A stretch of DNA of 64,000 bases, from the NCBI GenBank assembly GCA_963674545.2, contig CAXXFB010000001.1, positions 2,484,744 through 2,548,743 on the forward strand, written 5' to 3'. A program made the translations under genes and the position numbers. This DNA comes from Christensenellaceae bacterium (GTDB lineage Bacteria; Bacillota; Clostridia; Christensenellales; SZUA-584). A model generated the notes under the pieces. That model was not told the origin of the DNA. It worked only from the letters and a program-made list of their open reading frames with translations, and did no database searches. Shown piece by piece: positions 15,799-39,258 of this stretch (position 1 is its first letter; every line of letters begins with the position of its first letter).

Positions 15799-16766
15799 AA
15801 ACATGTGAAACAAAAAGTAGATTTAATATTTATGATGGTTTTTATAAATATGGCTTATATATGGTTTTTGTAGCTTTATTTGTTACATTTTCAATATTTA
15901 ACAAAGAATTTATCAGCATAGCAAATATTATTAACCTTTTACAGCAATCTTCTGCGCCTGCTATTGCTGCGGTTGGTGTTGTTTTTGTTCTTGTTTCCGG
16001 TGGAATTGATATTTCTATTGGATCAACAATTTATCTTACTGCAGCGTTAGTTACGATGGCCACAAATGCTGGCCTAGGGCTCATCCCTGCGATATTGTTA
16101 GTACTAATTACTGGCGGTATTATTGGTTGTTTAAATGGCTTTATGATTGCAAAACTACATATGGTACCAATTATTGTTACCTTAGCTATGATGTTCATTA
16201 TACGAGGTTTTACCCTTGCAATAACGAATATTGAAATGCAATATTTTATGAACCCAGTTGGTGATTTTATTGCGCGGTATCGTTTATTCGGCATCATTCC
16301 GATTATAGTGATTACAATGATTATAGTGCTTGCAATTGGGCAATTTGTTTTAAGTTATACAGCTTTTGGGCGACATTTATATGCAATGGGTAACAATAGT
16401 GTTGCTGCACTTAAAGCTGGAATTCGTTTTAAAAGAAACTCATTTCTTGTTTACATAATATCCGGTGCTTTAGCAGGCCTGGCAGGTTTAGTAGGTGGCG
16501 CACAGGTTGGAGGTGTAACTACAACCTATGGAAGCGGTCAGGAGTTCCTTGTAATTAGTGCATGTGTATTAGGAGGGGTGAGTCTCTTTGGGGGAAAAGG
16601 TAGAATATTTCCAGGTGCGTTTTTGGGTGTTCTTATTGTAATGGGGATTGAGAATGGTTTAGTCATGGCAAGCGCAAACGTATATTTATATACAATTATA
16701 CGCGGCATGGTGATATTCTTAGCAGTTATGGTAGATTGCTTAAGAAATACCAGTGAGCTAAGATAA
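15795..16766 (+). CDS. ABC sugar transporter permease, second subunit
   Basis: Its start overlaps the preceding stop (ATGA). It has the 'GGIDISIG' block and is polytopic. Confidence 0.8.
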   Translation: MKTCETKSRFNIYDGFYKYGLYMVFVALFVTFSIFNKEFISIANIINLLQQSSAPAIAAVGVVFVLVSGGIDISIGSTIYLTAALVTMATNAGLGLIPAILLVLITGGIIGCLNGFMIAKLHMVPIIVTLAMMFIIRGFTLAITNIEMQYFMNPVGDFIARYRLFGIIPIIVITMIIVLAIGQFVLSYTAFGRHLYAMGNNSVAALKAGIRFKRNSFLVYIISGALAGLAGLVGGAQVGGVTTTYGSGQEFLVISACVLGGVSLFGGKGRIFPGAFLGVLIVMGIENGLVMASANVYLYTIIRGMVIFLAVMVDCLRNTSELR

Positions 16767-17363
16767 TAAAGTTGATTTGGAAATGATATACGAGTTACAG
16801 TTTCATTAGCTTTCATCCATCTAAACAGCTGTATTATGATATGCAATAATATTCGATACAGGTTTTAGCAAGAAAGTACTATGATAAATAAACAACTTGA
16901 GAAGTTGAAGGCTTTAATTAAGTATTCTAATTATATATGAACGAAAATATTGTATCTGTTCCATCGTTTCAATATCAAAAGGTAAATTAACATAAGATCT
17001 TTTCGTTTTATATGCCTTCTTCTAATCTTCAGAAACTTTTAAATGTAAGTAAAACAAGACTAATGATAATGTGAAAGAAAATGCAGAAAAAATTAATAAA
17101 AATAAGAGCAGTTATGCAAGAGCGGTACAGTCGCTATGAACAAACATAGCTATATATAGTTACAGGATATTTTTAATGCCTCGTAGTCAGATTTGATTGC
17201 GGGGCTATTTTTATGTCTAAAAGCTGTGCTTTTCTGTGCGGCTTTTTTTGTTTTCCAAAGGAGTTTACATGTCAAACAATAGCAGATCGCCACCTTCCTT
17301 TCAGATTTCCTTGAAGTGTTTGGAAACTTCAATATCGCTTGGAAATATGAAGGGAGTAAACAA

Positions 17364-17834
17364 ATGAAACCAAGTTACAGAAAAGCATATTTAACAGACG
17401 GGACACAGGTAAAGATAACTGAAGAACTATTTCAACAACTAAGAGAATGGGAAAAAGAAGGCCGTCCAATTCATTTCAGTTATATAGACATGCTGAAACA
17501 AGAAGACAACGAAATGATCAACAAGCAGCGTTGTTATAACACATTCAATATCTCATTAGAAGGGGAGCTTGAAAAAGATTCATCTAACCCGATGTTGCTT
17601 AAAGACACAAGAGATGTTTCAGGCAAGGCGACCAGAAGTATTGAGATGCGAAACGCTATAAACTCTGTGCTTAGTCTTTGCTCCGAAGCTCAAAGAAGAA
17701 GATTCATCAAGTATTACTACTTGGATTTCACCCTCGACATGATCGCTGCACAAGAGGGCTGCAGCTTTCAAACTGTACAGCGTTCTATCAAGAAAGTAGA
17801 AAAAAGACTGATTATATTAAAAAATTTCTTCTAG
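17364..17834 (+). CDS. Sigma-70 region-4-like HTH protein (element regulatory protein)
   Basis: The ATG at 17364 follows GAAGGGAG. The C-terminus 'LSLCSEAQRRRFIKYYYLDFTLDMIAAQEGCSFQTVQRSIKKVEKRL' resembles a sigma r4 HTH. Confidence 0.5.
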   Translation: MKPSYRKAYLTDGTQVKITEELFQQLREWEKEGRPIHFSYIDMLKQEDNEMINKQRCYNTFNISLEGELEKDSSNPMLLKDTRDVSGKATRSIEMRNAINSVLSLCSEAQRRRFIKYYYLDFTLDMIAAQEGCSFQTVQRSIKKVEKRLIILKNFF

Positions 17835-18245
17835 GGGGGTGAAAAACATGCTCTCCCAACGCTATATAGTGTAGGGGTTTTTTCGAAATGGAAAAACCGC
17901 AGGCAAGTAATGCCTTGAAAGTTCATTGAAAATTGAATAAAAAGCGTTTCAAGTACGAAAGCCATGCAGCGTAGATACGAAAGCGACAGACAAGGACGCC
18001 AAAACCATTCTGCAGTGATACCCAAGGGGGCAGACCCTGACAAACTGTAAACCGGATAGACGATCCAAGAATGCGAGCGACAAACCTTGTCTGGGATATC
18101 CTAAGCCGTTAAAGATAGACGGCATTCGCCATGACCTGTGTGGTGCTGAAACTTCCCAAACGTTGGGCGGTCATACGATAGGACATAGAAGTCCTTAAAA
18201 ATGGGCGGGTGAAACTCCATGCGGTAGGTTATCTCTACCGGCTTG
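17835..18245 (+). ncRNA. Candidate structured non-coding RNA (unclassified)
   Basis: An ORF-free stretch that is visibly more GC-rich than its AT-rich flanks. Local hairpins occur at 17876-17898, 17901-17915, 18155-18167, 18180-18195 and 18222-18240. A 9-bp long-range pair is CAGACAAGG (17987-17995) with CCTTGTCTG (18085-18093). The strand is not established. Confidence 0.3.
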
Positions 18246-18346
18246 AAATGTTGACTAAAAAATCTGAAAGACATATACAATGCGGCATCTGTGAATTACC
18301 GGTGCCGCATGAATATATCTTTTGGAAATATTGAAGGAGGAAAATT

Positions 18347-18541
18347 ATGAATAGTAATTTGATTGATATTCAGAATGTAAAAATAAACACTGACCTTCCT
18401 GTATCGGATAAGGTTAAGAGCTTTATAGAGCAAATTATTGACCCATATCACTTCAAGTGTTGCGATGTAGAGGTCACTTTAGACTTTGACGGGCACGACT
18501 CACTCGAAAGCAAAATCATAAAACATCTATGCAGCAAATAA
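18347..18541 (+). CDS. Small conserved protein of the kind found just upstream of large serine recombinase genes (DUF6870-like impression)
   Basis: GGAGG RBS. The 'VKINTDLP...DPYHFKC' pattern is recalled from similar small ORFs in Firmicutes elements. Confidence 0.35.
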   Translation: MNSNLIDIQNVKINTDLPVSDKVKSFIEQIIDPYHFKCCDVEVTLDFDGHDSLESKIIKHLCSK

Positions 18542-18637
18542 AACGTTCTCAAATTTCTTGATTTGAAATTATTGTGCTAAGCTTTGATTGGCACTTAAAA
18601 GTCCTGCTGTTTGATAAAAAAACAGGAGGTATTTGTA

Positions 18638-20359
18638 ATGGCAAGAAAAAAGTTTTATGTCAATGAAGAAGCGGGAGAACAAACTGAAAAAAAGAATGTG
18701 TGGAGTGTTGCAAAGTATATCCGTCTTTCAAGAATGGATGGTGATAACTTAGAGAGCGATAGCGTTGTTAATCAAAGAAAGCTGCTCAATGATTACATCG
18801 ACGAGCATGACGATTTTATAGGCATAGAAGAATTCATTGATGATGACTGGACCGGAACGAACTTTGAGCGCCCCGGTTTCCAAAGGATGATGCGGGAGAT
18901 TGAAAACAGAAACATCAACTGCGTTATTGTAAAAGACTTATCACGTTTCGGTAGAAACTACATAGAAGCCGGTAGATACCTTGAGCATACTCTTCCGACG
19001 TTCAATTGCAGAATCATATCCGTTATAGATGAACTGGACAGCTTCAAAGATACGGACGCTGCGCTTGGGCTTATGGTTCGTATAAAAAACCTTATCCATG
19101 ACCATAACAGCCAGGACATATCCAAGAAAGTAAGAGAAACGAAGAACATGCTCCGTAAAGAAGGCAAATATATTTCTCAACCTCCCTTCGGATACAAGAA
19201 AGATCCGAGTGACAGATATAAGCTGGTTATTGACGAAGAAGCTGCAACGGTTGTAAGAAAGATATTTAATATGTACTTGGAAGGTATGGGAACCATACGT
19301 ATTTCACAAAGGCTGAACGAGCTCGGAATAATGACACGGGGAGATTATATTAAGACAGGTTCGATATACAGGGACGATAATATTGTTTCGAGCACAAAAG
19401 GCTGGAGACCAAACGGTATACGCAGTATGCTGAGCAACAAAGCATATATAGGAGCGGTGTGCCAGCGGCGGAGAACCACGAGGAATTATAAGGACAGAAA
19501 ACCAATCTATTTGGATGAAAAAGACCAAATAGTTGTATACGACATGCACGAACCGATTGTCAGCAGAGAACAGTTTGATAAAGTGCAGGAGATTCTAAAA
19601 AGAAGATGCACAAAAACATCTCAGTATAGCAAAGAACTATATTTGTTCTCTGGAATGTTACGCTGTGCAGGGTGTAAATCCTCAATGATAAGAAATCCTA
19701 AGTTCCATAAGAACAAGTGGTATGTATATTACAAATGCCGAGGATACAATCAACGTGGCACGAAAGTTTGCAATCATTCACACAGTATAAGCGAAGAAAA
19801 GCTAGTTGTAGCTGTAAGGTATGCTTTGAACATACAGATTCAAACGCTAGTTGATATGAAACGAGTTATAGAAGCAATAAATAAGAATAAACAGCGGCAA
19901 CGCATGTCAATAGACTATGACAAGCTGATTATTGAGAAATCAGTAAAAAAGGAAAAGATTAGAACCATGAAGCTAAGCAGCTACATGGACTGGAAAAGCG
20001 GTACGGTTTCAAAAGATGAGTATACATTCATGCGTGATAAGTTTGACAGTATGATTGAGCAGTTGAACAAAGAAATGTCCAATTTGAAAAGTGAAAAGCG
20101 AGCCGAGGAAGATATACGCAGCAATCAGTATGGCTGGCTGGATAGCATGATCAGTAACGGATATCTGAGCACTTTATCCAGGGAGATAACAACAGAATTT
20201 ATCGACTGTATCTACGTTGGGAAAGACAAAAAGGTTCAAATCGTTTTCAAGCATAAGGATGAGTTCCAAAGGCTAACCGGTTATATTGAAAAGCATGCTG
20301 GATCATGTTATGAAGAGCAAGGAGGTGTGCTCAATGTATCAGATGGCATTGCAAGATAA
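18638..20359 (+). CDS. Large serine recombinase
   Basis: The ATG at 18638 follows AGGAGG. Resolvase motifs 'YIRLSRMDG' (Ser nucleophile) and 'VKDLSRFGRN', a recombinase domain, and the Cys cluster 'CAGCKSSM...YYKCRGY...VCNH'. Confidence 0.9.
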   Translation: MARKKFYVNEEAGEQTEKKNVWSVAKYIRLSRMDGDNLESDSVVNQRKLLNDYIDEHDDFIGIEEFIDDDWTGTNFERPGFQRMMREIENRNINCVIVKDLSRFGRNYIEAGRYLEHTLPTFNCRIISVIDELDSFKDTDAALGLMVRIKNLIHDHNSQDISKKVRETKNMLRKEGKYISQPPFGYKKDPSDRYKLVIDEEAATVVRKIFNMYLEGMGTIRISQRLNELGIMTRGDYIKTGSIYRDDNIVSSTKGWRPNGIRSMLSNKAYIGAVCQRRRTTRNYKDRKPIYLDEKDQIVVYDMHEPIVSREQFDKVQEILKRRCTKTSQYSKELYLFSGMLRCAGCKSSMIRNPKFHKNKWYVYYKCRGYNQRGTKVCNHSHSISEEKLVVAVRYALNIQIQTLVDMKRVIEAINKNKQRQRMSIDYDKLIIEKSVKKEKIRTMKLSSYMDWKSGTVSKDEYTFMRDKFDSMIEQLNKEMSNLKSEKRAEEDIRSNQYGWLDSMISNGYLSTLSREITTEFIDCIYVGKDKKVQIVFKHKDEFQRLTGYIEKHAGSCYEEQGGVLNVSDGIAR

Positions 20360-21935
20360 TATTACATGGTATACCGCCATATACGTTAGGATTACAGACA
20401 ATGAGAAGAAAAAAGGGCTATATGATAGCATTGATAATCAGATAAAAATATTAAAGCAGTATGCACTGAAAAAAGAACTCGTTAACGTACGTGTATTTGC
20501 GGATGAGCATAAGAAGGGAGGCAACTTTGACCGCCCTGCGTTCAAGCAGATGATGGAAGAAATCAAGCAAGGAAATATTAACTGCGTGATGGTAAAAGAC
20601 CTTTCTCGTTTTGGCAGAGAACACATAGAAGGTGATTATTTACTTGAGGTGTTCTTCCCAGAGAACGACGTTCGATTGATATCTAAGCTTGAACGAATTG
20701 ATAGCTATACGGACCCAAATCGAATGAACAGCATTGAGATTCCGCTTATTAATCTTTTCAACGAACAGTATTTGCGGCAGGTATCTAACTCAACAAAAGC
20801 CAGCCTTAAGATGAAGCGCAAAGAAGGTAAGTTCGTTGGTTCAAGAATACCATACGGATATCTGCGTTCTGATGAAGACAAGCATCAGCTGATAGTCGAT
20901 GAATCAGTGCGAGATATTATTGTTAACATCTTTGAAATGTATCTGAACTACATGAGCTTTCATGCAATTGCTCAGAAACTTAATACAGATAATATCCTGG
21001 CGCCTTCGCAGCATTACAAAGAGATGCATGGACAAACAGTTAAACAAGATACAATGTGGAATGCTAATGCTATACGGAATATCATAACACAACCCATTTT
21101 GACCGGCGACATGGTGCAAGGGCGAACGGTTTCATACAGTCACAAGGTGAAAAAGCGTGTGCCGCTGCCAAAAGATAAATGGACTGTTGTAGAGAATACG
21201 CATGAGTCGATCATTGATAGAGAAACATTTAATACAGCACAGGCAATTGTTGAGAAGAAGTCAAGACCTACAGTGCGGAAACAAAAAACTATGCCGTCCG
21301 TTTTGGCGGGATTCATGGTCTGCGGTGATTGCCATGCTGTAATGCAGCGTACGGTTTCTACACATAATGGTAAGAAGTATTACCATATGATTTGCAGCAC
21401 ATACAAGAAGCTGGGGAAAACGGCCTGTACAAATCATCTGGTCTCTGAGAGTAAAATCAAAGAAGTTTTGCTTATAACAATAAATAAACTTATCGACGTT
21501 ATCGTTGATGTGGAAAAAGCGATAAAAGAAAATAAGCGTAACGAGATTTCCAAGCTAAGAGCAAAGCTTAAACAGGAATTAAAATCTTCGACGATTGAAA
21601 GAGAGAGGATTGCATCAATCAAAGCGGGGCTATACAGCGATTATAAGCAGGATGTTATTTCACTTGAAGACTACAAGGATATGAAACAGCAATTCGAAAA
21701 AAAGCAAAATGTGCTGGATAAGAAAATTGATAGGTTAAATAAAGATTTGTTTCAAATTGATAACGTGAATTCCTATTCAACTGATGCTGCAAATGCTTTT
21801 ATAAAGTATTCAGGTATTTTGGTGATAACCAGAGAGCTGCTTGGGGACCTGGTAGAAAAGATTGTTATTGATGCAGATAAGAATATAAAAATTATCTTCA
21901 AGTTTCAAGACGAGTTGAAGCGATATCTAAATTAA
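20334..21935 (+). CDS. Large serine recombinase paralogue with Thr at the nucleophile position
   Basis: The ATG at 20334 lies 8 nt after GGAGG and overlaps the upstream gene by 26 nt. 'YVRITDNE' aligns with 'YIRLSRMD' (ACA codon). 'VKDLSRFGRE' and the Cys cluster 'CGDCHAVMQR...CSTYKKLGKTACTNH' are intact. Confidence 0.85.
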   Translation: MYQMALQDNITWYTAIYVRITDNEKKKGLYDSIDNQIKILKQYALKKELVNVRVFADEHKKGGNFDRPAFKQMMEEIKQGNINCVMVKDLSRFGREHIEGDYLLEVFFPENDVRLISKLERIDSYTDPNRMNSIEIPLINLFNEQYLRQVSNSTKASLKMKRKEGKFVGSRIPYGYLRSDEDKHQLIVDESVRDIIVNIFEMYLNYMSFHAIAQKLNTDNILAPSQHYKEMHGQTVKQDTMWNANAIRNIITQPILTGDMVQGRTVSYSHKVKKRVPLPKDKWTVVENTHESIIDRETFNTAQAIVEKKSRPTVRKQKTMPSVLAGFMVCGDCHAVMQRTVSTHNGKKYYHMICSTYKKLGKTACTNHLVSESKIKEVLLITINKLIDVIVDVEKAIKENKRNEISKLRAKLKQELKSSTIERERIASIKAGLYSDYKQDVISLEDYKDMKQQFEKKQNVLDKKIDRLNKDLFQIDNVNSYSTDAANAFIKYSGILVITRELLGDLVEKIVIDADKNIKIIFKFQDELKRYLN

Positions 21936-31871: not shown

Positions 31872-32803
31872 ACAAGCAAGAAATTAGTTGCGTATTTGAT
31901 TCCATAGAGAGCAATTCCTATGACTGGGCATTATACTTTTTTAGTATTGATAGAAGAAACTCTATGCCTTTCAGTTTTCACAAGGTTAGATTCAAAAATC
32001 TTGAGTATTTACCTGAGTATGCAAAAAACCTTGTATCGATAACAAAGCAATATCAGGTAGATCAAGCAACAGCAGTCCAAGCGTATGACGGGTTTAATAC
32101 GAAAGTTTCTTGCGATACCATTACTACTGAAAGCGATCTATTATCTGAAGAGTGGCAGTTATTTAAAACTGCCATTGAAAACGCATCAGATGAAAAGATC
32201 AGCGGAAAGGTTAAGGGGTATGTATTAATTGGACATCCAGTTGATAACGATGAACTTAAACCTATTATTTTTGTTAAATGCGGGAATCCAATAATTGATT
32301 TAACGAATAAAAAACGAGTAGCATATATAGCTACTGAAAAAGACGAATTGGATTTAATTTCAGATGATATTTATCGATTATATTTGACAGTTGATTTTTT
32401 CCATTATGTTGGCAGCATATATGCGTTTAATCATTCTTTTGAGAAGATCTTTAATGTTGAGGGGACACTTAAAAGGGTTAAAGCTCATGCTATAGAAGAG
32501 ATTATTTTAGTTGATGCATTTAATGACACAGAAGCATTTAAAGGTTTTTCGAAGAGTTATACACAAGCCAGGACTTTTATTACTCTGAATAAAGAGAGAC
32601 TGGAAAGAATATCTAAAGCAGATCAGCGTACAAACATAGCAGGAATGCTGCAGATTGAAATAGATAGTCAGAATAAATTTATTGTAGCTGATGCTGAAAA
32701 AGCATCGTTATTGATTAGATATCTTTGTTATAAAATATTTAGAGATGATGAAAGCAAAGACGTTTTAGAAGGAGAGGCTGTTAGTAAAATTAATTTTACA
32801 TAA
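31868..32803 (+). CDS. Soluble 311-aa partner protein, KwaB (DUF4868)-like by size and context
   Basis: Its start overlaps the upstream stop (ATGA at 31868-31871) and follows AGGAGAAG. Homology is not verifiable by eye. Confidence 0.45.
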   Translation: MNKQEISCVFDSIESNSYDWALYFFSIDRRNSMPFSFHKVRFKNLEYLPEYAKNLVSITKQYQVDQATAVQAYDGFNTKVSCDTITTESDLLSEEWQLFKTAIENASDEKISGKVKGYVLIGHPVDNDELKPIIFVKCGNPIIDLTNKKRVAYIATEKDELDLISDDIYRLYLTVDFFHYVGSIYAFNHSFEKIFNVEGTLKRVKAHAIEEIILVDAFNDTEAFKGFSKSYTQARTFITLNKERLERISKADQRTNIAGMLQIEIDSQNKFIVADAEKASLLIRYLCYKIFRDDESKDVLEGEAVSKINFT

Positions 32804-39168: not shown

Positions 39169-39258
39169 TGGCGGAGAGGGTGGGATTCGAACCCACGGAT
39201 GCTTGCGCATCACCGGTTTTCAAGACCGGCACTTTCAACCAGACTCGGACACCTCTCC
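39169..39258 (-). tRNA. tRNA-Ser (anticodon UGA), CCA encoded
   Basis: The reverse complement gives GGAGAGG acceptor, anticodon stem CCGGT/ACCGG with loop CTTGAAA, a long variable arm GATGC..GCATC, T-arm GTGGG-TTCGAAT-CCCAC, and the 3' end CCTCTCC-G-CCA. Confidence 0.92.

Follow-up and report, generated by a model that had tools for sequence, protein, structure and literature searches.

A structured RNA upstream of serine recombinase genes in a Christensenellaceae mobilisable element, a divergent and expanded form of the canT/pemK class

To our knowledge, no RNA antiterminator of an integrative conjugative element other than canT of Tn916 has been described, and the pemK motif (RF02913) is an orphan cis-regulatory candidate that reportedly came from a 2017 survey of 224 candidate RNAs. 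canT (conjugation-associated antiterminator) spans 452 nt lying 3' of the sigma-like gene orf7, with orf8 before it and xis after it (PMC11658703; Wirachman and Grossman 2024), and is sufficient for read-through of both Tn916 and foreign terminators (PMC11658703). Its action is described there as orientation-specific, cis-acting and processive, is retained with foreign promoters and terminators and without the other genes of the element, and is not complemented in trans (PMC11658703). According to the authors, structural analysis was not pursued and they have no structural model (PMC11658703), while orf5, an annotated antisense frame in the region, was dispensable as a protein (PMC11658703). 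A full-text search of the literature on canT returned this paper alone, and it makes no mention of pemK, Rfam or covariation; for ‘pemK motif’ and ‘pemK RNA’, the matches listed appeared, by title and abstract, to be mentions within data sets. Other processive RNA antiterminators are thought to modify the transcribing polymerase, including put (phage HK022), EAR (the Bacillus subtilis eps operon) and conAn2 (pLS20) (PMC11658703). These are likewise cis-acting structured RNAs that head long operons, but their size and fold differ from those of the RNA described below, the core of which matched no Rfam family besides pemK (E up to 10; 11.3 bits for pemK, with the other matches listed at chance level).

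As in Tn916, the window (the whole 64,000-nt stretch of DNA that was analysed) contains ~450-510 nt of DNA that is gene-free on the sense strand, placed after a sigma-r4-type gene and before recombination genes. The gap (17835-18346, 512 nt) extends from the stop of the sigma-r4-like gene (17834) to the start of the next small gene (18347). An earlier note on this DNA, made from the sequence alone, had described the gap as free of credible ORFs, and no sense-strand ORF was found in 17835-18346, where antisense frames alone occur (58-70 aa, n = 3; no Pfam match). The GC enrichment that it reported was also recovered (0.44-0.46 at 17900-18349 vs 0.27-0.41 upstream and 0.34-0.38 downstream). The segment is present as a single copy in its own genome and is surrounded by the following features:

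17178..17256, + strand: two terminator-like hairpins with T-runs (stems 17178-17205 and 17219-17246), between the host ABC-transporter operon and the first genes of the element
17364..17834, + strand: encodes a 156-aa protein whose C-terminal part is a sigma-70 region-4 / YlxM-like HTH; start placed by alignment with relatives
18347..18541, + strand: DUF6870 gene (Pfam PF21757, 5.5e-14), the first gene 3' of the RNA
18611..21935, + strand: two large serine recombinase genes (18611-20359 and 20286-21935), both with Resolvase, Recombinase and Zn_ribbon_recom domains

Host-type sugar and ABC-transporter genes lie upstream of the element, the last of them ending at 16766, and the hairpin pair that follows may serve as an insulator like T1 of Tn916. 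The 156-aa protein matched the Pfam families UPF0122 (4e-4) and, below the cut-off, Sigma70_r4_2 (3.5e-3). The element is co-directional, running from the sigma-r4/YlxM-like gene through the RNA, DUF6870 and the two large serine recombinases to TnpV and Fic, then through restriction-modification, Kiwa-like and Mrr genes to MobC and relaxase genes (the latter at 35.3-37.2 kb, distant from the RNA), a third serine recombinase and a tRNA (39172-39258). By its position, the RNA would be the control region before the recombinases of a defence-carrying mobilisable island. Unlike in Tn916, the downstream genes are DUF6870 and two serine recombinases rather than xis and int, and no orf8-type gene is present. 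Further, the module occupies the upstream end of a co-directional mobilisable element with defence genes, whereas canT lies at the far end of Tn916 and reads across the circular junction.

The earlier note had proposed that the gap holds a large structured RNA. The + strand of 17835-18346 has a minimum free energy (MFE) of -159.4 kcal/mol (z = -5.14), with none of 100 shuffles as good, vs z = -2.38 for the - strand. A multi-helix structure with strong compensatory change is common to 25 related copies, and one architecture was reached by a pairwise column scan, RNAalifold and single-sequence folds, with the single-sequence MFE giving the same core helices. The structure model was drawn on an alignment of 17 sequences and has 14 helices with 97 pairs in all, with pairing counted against shuffles. 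Paired cells (88.8% of 1435 vs 79.0% in shuffles), pairs changed on both sides (47/97 vs 27.7) and the covariation score (0.303 vs 0.155) all exceeded the shuffles (0/500 reached the observed value in each case). The number of further standard pair types was not above shuffles (98 vs 95.3, reached by 128/500). As a control, sliding the partners by 1-3 columns left 36-42% of cells paired and 13-17 pairs changed on both sides. The structure was assigned to the + strand because G-U cells outnumber A-C cells (144 vs 46). Between elements, the RNA core is 78-84% identical, compared to 34-39% for the sigma-like proteins and 23-39% for the small downstream ORFs. Overall, the strand-specific folding, the conservation above that of the flanking proteins and the covariation in 17 aligned copies support the conclusion that the gap encodes a structured + strand RNA, with the following parts from 5' to 3' (percentages are paired cells; fractions are pairs changed on both sides):

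17851..17884, + strand: T0, a terminator-like hairpin with a T-run after it, conserved and nearly invariant in alignments
17876..17915, + strand: P0 (T-run with a downstream A-run; 74.0%, 3/7) and the variable hairpin P0b (60%, 0/5)
17926..17939, + strand: conserved single-stranded box TTGAAAATTGAATA, 14 nt, A-rich, ending three bases 5' of P1
17943..18252, + strand: RNA core, ~310 nt, closed by P1
17943-54 / 18241-52, + strand: P1, 12 bp, long-range (97.5%, 5/12)
17961-69 / 18136-44, + strand: P2, 9 bp, long-range (91.2%, 7/9)
17983-86 / 18126-29, + strand: P3, a core helix
17987-95 / 18085-93, + strand: P4 (72.7%, 5/9)
18006-11 / 18068-73, + strand: P5 (84.6%, 4/6)
18105-09 / 18119-23, + strand: P8 (98.2%, 3/5)
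18143..18222, + strand: pemK-like three-hairpin domain, from the full-length RF02913 alignment and covariation counts
18155-59 / 18163-67, + strand: pemK-like hairpin 1 (100%, 1/5)
18168-74 / 18201-07, + strand: pemK-like second helix (100%, 1/6)
18180-84 / 18191-95, + strand: hairpin inserted in the pemK-like second helix (90.8%, 4/5)
18208-09 / 18217-18, + strand: small hairpin with a conserved purine-rich loop; across groups the pairs are G-C or U-A, or both bases are gone
18222..18240, + strand: P12, a hairpin that follows the pemK-like domain and precedes the 3' strand of P1 (93.5%, 5/6)
18262..18325 (core 18280-89 / 18301-10), + strand: P13, a long 3' hairpin outside the core (91.5%, 6/10)

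The 5' domain of the core consists of conserved single-stranded blocks and optional peripheral hairpins. A minimal version of ~215 nt, represented by the L023-L027 group, dispenses with P4-P8 altogether and also lacks P0b. The region of P4 and P5 is absent from five copies and its alignment is imperfect, and P2a, P6 and P7 stand outside the formal count as the alignment is shifted there, their support being read from alignments and folds. Five of the seven helices drawn in the earlier note are backed by compensatory changes (P4, pemK-like hairpin 1, the inserted hairpin, P12 [18222-27 / 18235-40] and the core of P13). Its GGTTTTT/AAAAACC helix (P0) is partly supported, with 74% of cells paired, and its AGGCA/TGCCT helix (P0b) falls in a variable, poorly aligned hairpin with 60% paired. 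Its ATGACC/GGTCAT helix is not conserved, being lost in the L023-L027 group, and GGTCAT pairs with 18201-07 instead. That list was without the long-range helices P1 and P2, which organise the fold, and the identity of the RNA was not named. An alternative 4-bp pairing of 18201-04 with 18217-20 is disfavoured, as four copies have an A opposite an invariant C.

Copies of the RNA were recovered from several sources. Among the genomes of the same family, 2/39 others carry copies, and an alignment search with the sigma-like protein gave 13 loci, mostly from Christensenellaceae MAGs. DNA pattern scans added one locus from viral contigs and eight from metagenomes, and a model of the 3' domain (R1, trained on 17 sequences) found copies in 3/150 other genomes of an order-level sample. 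R1 matches 26/31 of the sources tested (17 of which are its training set) and misses L019-L022 and L077; a finder based on the box and P1 missed seven family members with variant boxes. The blastn search of the segment against phage and plasmid collections returned nothing, and the search of a 400-genome sample of the class returned short chance matches only. In all 13 loci found through the sigma-like protein, the RNA is linked to the upstream HTH gene. The 5' half also occurs in L019-L022, but continues there into a different 3' part, which in L019 is the Rfam dinG RNA (48 bits), followed in all four, at the equivalent position, by an ORF of 738-740 aa, a DinG-like helicase in L019 (Pfam, L019 only). 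The association of the RNA is therefore with the start of an operon and the regulatory gene upstream, and not with recombinases as such.

The earlier note had suggested that the segment combines an ncRNA with a leader of the recombinase operon. The RNA part stands, and the leader part is plausible because a separate 3' hairpin (P13) lies just before the ribosome-binding site (18335-41), an extended P13 stem being seen in the MFE fold; the tie to recombinases as such does not hold. A promoter proposed in the same place (TTGACT...TATACA) is present in the sequence, but its -35 element is not conserved in relatives, its -10 element sits in the lower stem of the last hairpin and a consensus scan did not list it.

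Comparison with Tn916 was made through the Tn916/Tn925 copy in pCF10 (L049), where orf7 and orf8 are followed by a 460-nt gap and then xis and int. A profile built from the family alone (nhmmer) matches the 5' half of that canT region (L049 2139-2250, + strand; E = 2.6e-5 in 105 kb), and unrelated sequence reached E = 0.95 at best. With filters off, R1 ranks L049 2290-2437 first in 61 kb at an E of 0.43, which is not significant, and with default filters it found no Tn916-type copy. The RNA sequence in the window is very divergent from canT and is not found by single-sequence search: as a single nhmmer query, Tn916 canT matched L025 only (E = 0.052) and gave no significant match to the window, the L039 region and Tn916 canT as blastn queries on 12 Xis loci matched only themselves, and BLASTP of the proteins flanking the window RNA against Tn916 Orf7 showed no similarity. 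Orf7 does match the same two Pfam families as the 156-aa protein of the window (UPF0122 and Sigma70_r4_2), and the 156-aa sigma-r4-like gene is the positional counterpart of Tn916 orf7.

Tn916 has the same 14-nt box, a 12-bp P1 of unrelated sequence beginning 3 nt after the box, a 9-bp P2, the three-hairpin 3' domain and the terminal hairpin. In shuffled search windows, the helix length of P1 in Tn916 was reached by 18/2000 and that of P2 by 205/2000. Two intermediates, L039 (where xis is accompanied by a tyrosine integrase) and L052 (from a plasmid of Enterococcus faecium that has orf7, orf8 and xis), carry P1, P2, the three 3' hairpins and P12 at equivalent places, as does L049. Box TTGAAAATTGAATA occurs in Tn916 canT, L039 and members of the family; a role as a -35 element was rejected because P1, 3 nt further on, must be transcribed. 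In the window, L039, L052 and Tn916, a sigma-r4-type gene of 140-156 aa precedes the RNA and the recombination genes follow it, with orf8 between in Tn916 and L052. Six further plasmid loci yielded a recognisable copy in L052 only, and L037, the best PF09035 locus, has coding sequence upstream and no RNA. Together with the shared position, these comparisons show that the window RNA is a divergent homologue of canT. Relative to canT, it has additional peripheral helices, P4-P8, and the second hairpin of its 3' domain carries a further hairpin of 25 nt as an insert. The window family and its Tn916-type relatives provide a covariation-supported architecture for canT that is testable through P1 and P2.

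The 3' domain of Tn916 canT is the pemK motif. RF02913 matches the Tn916 copy at L049 2308-2408 with 55 bits (threshold 34.8), and matches L052 (57.8 bits) and L039 (63.1 bits) above threshold as well. In the window, 18143-18222 aligns with all 61 positions of RF02913 collinear around a 25-nt insertion, at 11.3 bits and E = 7; the RNA is thus not a member of pemK by the Rfam criterion, as the score lies below the gathering threshold of 34.8, and the Rfam search that the earlier note had proposed gave no gathering-level match to the segment. The window does share three adjacent hairpins within one closing pair and the conserved flank and loop sequence with RF02913, and its 3' domain is a three-hairpin junction of divergent pemK form. 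At gathering thresholds, Rfam found the tRNA at 39172-39258 only in the whole window, and with E up to 10 it found nothing beyond chance in 17600-18700 and no riboswitch or cis-regulatory family. The RF02913 model is limited to the 3' domain and does not include the box, P1, P2 or the 5' domain of the present structure.

Two mutations described in the canT paper bear on this domain. The inactivating canT(S3) replaces an ATA that starts 283 nt after the orf8 stop (PMC11658703), which by that description corresponds to L049 2308-2310, where the sequence reads ATA and the first three positions of RF02913 lie; in the window, 18143-18145 align with this site. The 162-bp deletion of canT, placed in the same way, corresponds to L049 2254-2415 and takes out the 3' strand of P2 and the whole pemK motif. 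The canT-pemK link would explain the effect of canT(S3), and it would allow antitermination modules to be annotated in many mobile elements.

RF02913 matches 34/151 sampled genomes of the window's class, its own genome included, so that canT, whose function is known from experiment, is linked to an orphan Rfam motif found in about a fifth of these genomes. For several of the matches, a Tn916-type xis gene follows at a distance of 200-300 nt. Among 30 RF02913 loci, the box was present in 20, at 114-246 nt upstream of the motif; by the strict pattern 10/30 are without it, one of which has merely 28 nt of upstream sequence. In 15 of the 20 boxed loci, an 8-13-bp helix of unrelated sequence runs from 2-11 nt after the box to 14-21 nt after the motif, and in the other 5/20 such a helix is absent or in another register. 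In the window's own genome, the canonical RF02913 copy (C1:1900636-1900733, - strand) precedes a further large serine recombinase, so such a context is not new for the class.

The window RNA is a real structured RNA, a divergent and expanded form of the canT/pemK class. The gain lies in a secondary-structure model that can be put to the test and in the link between canT and pemK; antitermination at this locus is proposed by analogy with Tn916. We consider it probable, with some reserve, that the segment gives a canT-type, cis-acting + strand RNA that promotes antitermination into and beyond the recombinase operon, and read-through of terminators into the serine-recombinase operon would be its likeliest function. 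The RNA would fold while being made and act in cis, and the polymerase that had transcribed it would, by analogy with Tn916 canT, become resistant to intrinsic terminators, allowing transcription from the sigma-like regulatory gene to run through the DUF6870 and serine recombinase genes and on into the rest of the element. Three features argue against carrying the Tn916 model over unchanged: the position of the module, the few terminators downstream and T0 before the RNA. A need for processive antitermination is not evident, since a consensus scan gave one weak terminator-like site downstream of the RNA on the + strand (32689-32707) and no terminator excess overall (13 vs 10.3 expected). Nor need the link with excision known from Tn916 hold here, because the module is at the upstream end of the element, not the far end, and T0, if efficient, would stop transcripts that must carry the RNA.

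A broader reading, which we hold to be possible but doubtful, is that canT and pemK form one widespread class of ~200-310-nt polymerase-reprogramming RNAs (box, P1, P2 and three-hairpin junction), and that T0 and the expanded RNA of the window together make a two-step gate. RNAs of this class would head the operons of mobile elements with tyrosine or serine recombinases, T0 would be a conserved conditional terminator, and the gate could time the transcription of the serine recombinases and the defence cargo. The extra domains of the window RNA could then bind a signal or the neighbouring sigma-like protein.

Binding of this kind is also central to a sensing leader of riboswitch or attenuator type, which would respond to a ligand or a protein such as the upstream sigma-like protein and switch DUF6870 and the recombinases locally, without processivity. 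The large and complex fold with its invariant single-stranded blocks is in keeping with such a leader, as are the terminator-like hairpins that flank it (T0 on the 5' side and, with a T-run in the window copy, P13 on the 3' side) and the linkage to the upstream HTH gene in 13/13 loci. However, neither the T-run 3' of P13 nor any pairing with the ribosome-binding site is conserved in relatives, L059 has no ORF directly upstream, with ~300 nt of non-coding DNA before T0 (by reading the sequence), and canT stays active when promoters and terminators are foreign and the other genes of the element are missing (PMC11658703), which makes a sensing leader fairly unlikely. A stable and possibly processed ncRNA that acts in trans, for example on recombination or host factors, is less likely still. 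Two contigs from RNA libraries were found on a 1.5-kb stretch, from two studies (250 and 268 nt), and are confined to the core (17957-18205 and 17934-18209), faintly hinting at a stable species. Both come from relatives with ~90% identity and low depth, however, they are uninformative on ends and strand, the lack of cover on the flanks carries no weight and the libraries may contain DNA, and canT is not complemented in trans (PMC11658703). The canT-type reading is preferred over both.

Compensatory changes alone would fit ssDNA as well as RNA, and the element has MobC and relaxase genes, so that hairpins formed in DNA could make up a single-strand origin or a transfer-related site. This is very unlikely, given the excess of G-U over A-C cells and the many helices that depend on wobble pairs, the distance to the relaxase genes, and the orientation-specific effect on transcription of the homologous segment (PMC11658703). 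A decayed or overlooked protein gene, to which the antisense frames and the comparable annotated frame orf5 of Tn916 might point, is hardly credible, as 0/3 antisense frames have a Pfam match, near-identical copies differ by 19-nt and 1-nt indels, substitutions track base pairs and not codons, and orf5 is dispensable as a protein (PMC11658703).

T0 could be a terminator, a promoter-like site or a part of the RNA. Its sequence is more conserved than its inner pairing: 79.4% of cells are paired and 3/8 pairs are changed on both sides, with the outer pairs kept. The inner stem as first drawn was unsupported, two of its pairs being unpaired in 8 and 11 of 17 copies. T0-like modules of 50 nt also occur, without the RNA, at three other loci of a congener.

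The canT region was defined by experiment, and its 3' part corresponds to an orphan Rfam motif, pemK (RF02913), with scores of 55–63 bits in an Rfam scan of the three loci L049, L052 and L039. In the Tn916 copy, the inactivating substitution canT(S3) falls on the first three positions of the motif. This correspondence is absent from the canT paper (PMC11658703).

L049 2308-2408: pemK match, Tn916/Tn925 copy in pCF10
L052 1418-1515: pemK match, Enterococcus faecium plasmid locus
L039 1204-1262: pemK match, locus with xis and a tyrosine integrase gene
L049 859-1088: SQ2397 (RF03532), cis-regulator of an HTH transcription factor, 229.8 bits, Rfam
C1:1900636-1900733, minus strand: canonical pemK-motif RNA in the window's own genome (L077), 63.9 bits

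In the Tn916 copy, orf7 is preceded by the SQ2397 RNA. The pemK RNA of L077 sits in a different element of the window's genome, flanked by a 141-aa ORF on one side and the gene of a large serine recombinase on the other.

Among loci with relatives of the window RNA or the sigma-like gene, four (L019–L022) have the 5' half in common (T0, box and conserved blocks), fused to another 3' part. The Rfam and Pfam scans among these covered L019, where this alternative 3' part matched the dinG RNA and the ORF 3' of it encodes a DinG-like helicase (Pfam); an ORF of 738–740 aa occupies the equivalent place in all four. Metatranscriptome contigs from relatives (~90% identical), drawn from one salt-lake run and one salt-marsh run, span the RNA core only (window 17934-18209), and one of them shares the 19-nt deletion of L016, a further related locus.

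L019 3786-3871: dinG RNA (RF03082), 48 bits, Rfam
Window 17835-17884: T0 module, 50 nt, comprising a G-run, C-rich run, conserved AT-rich loop, G-run and T-run
Window 17178-17256, plus strand: two strong terminator-like hairpins
Window 17270-17367: 32-codon ORF and its dedicated ribosome-binding site, read by eye

The T0 module also occurs at three loci of a congener (L005, L007 and L008; ~1490-1573), with no RNA after it. Pairing between its first G-run and the C-rich run could take the place of the terminator stem, and the module is therefore a possible attenuator-like switch.

At the upstream end of the element, the two hairpins are comparable in position to the Tn916 insulator T1. They have a host ABC-transporter operon on one side and the element's first genes on the other. 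The 32-codon ORF terminates, as read by eye, in an ATGA that overlaps the start of the sigma-like gene, which suggests translational coupling of the two. In L017, L018, L019 and L021 (1100-2800), three genes lie upstream of the sigma-like gene: one for an ImmA/IrrE-type metallopeptidase, a divergent one for an HTH_3 repressor, and an unknown one of 180 aa. In the window and L023–L027, the sigma-like gene adjoins host genes without this set.
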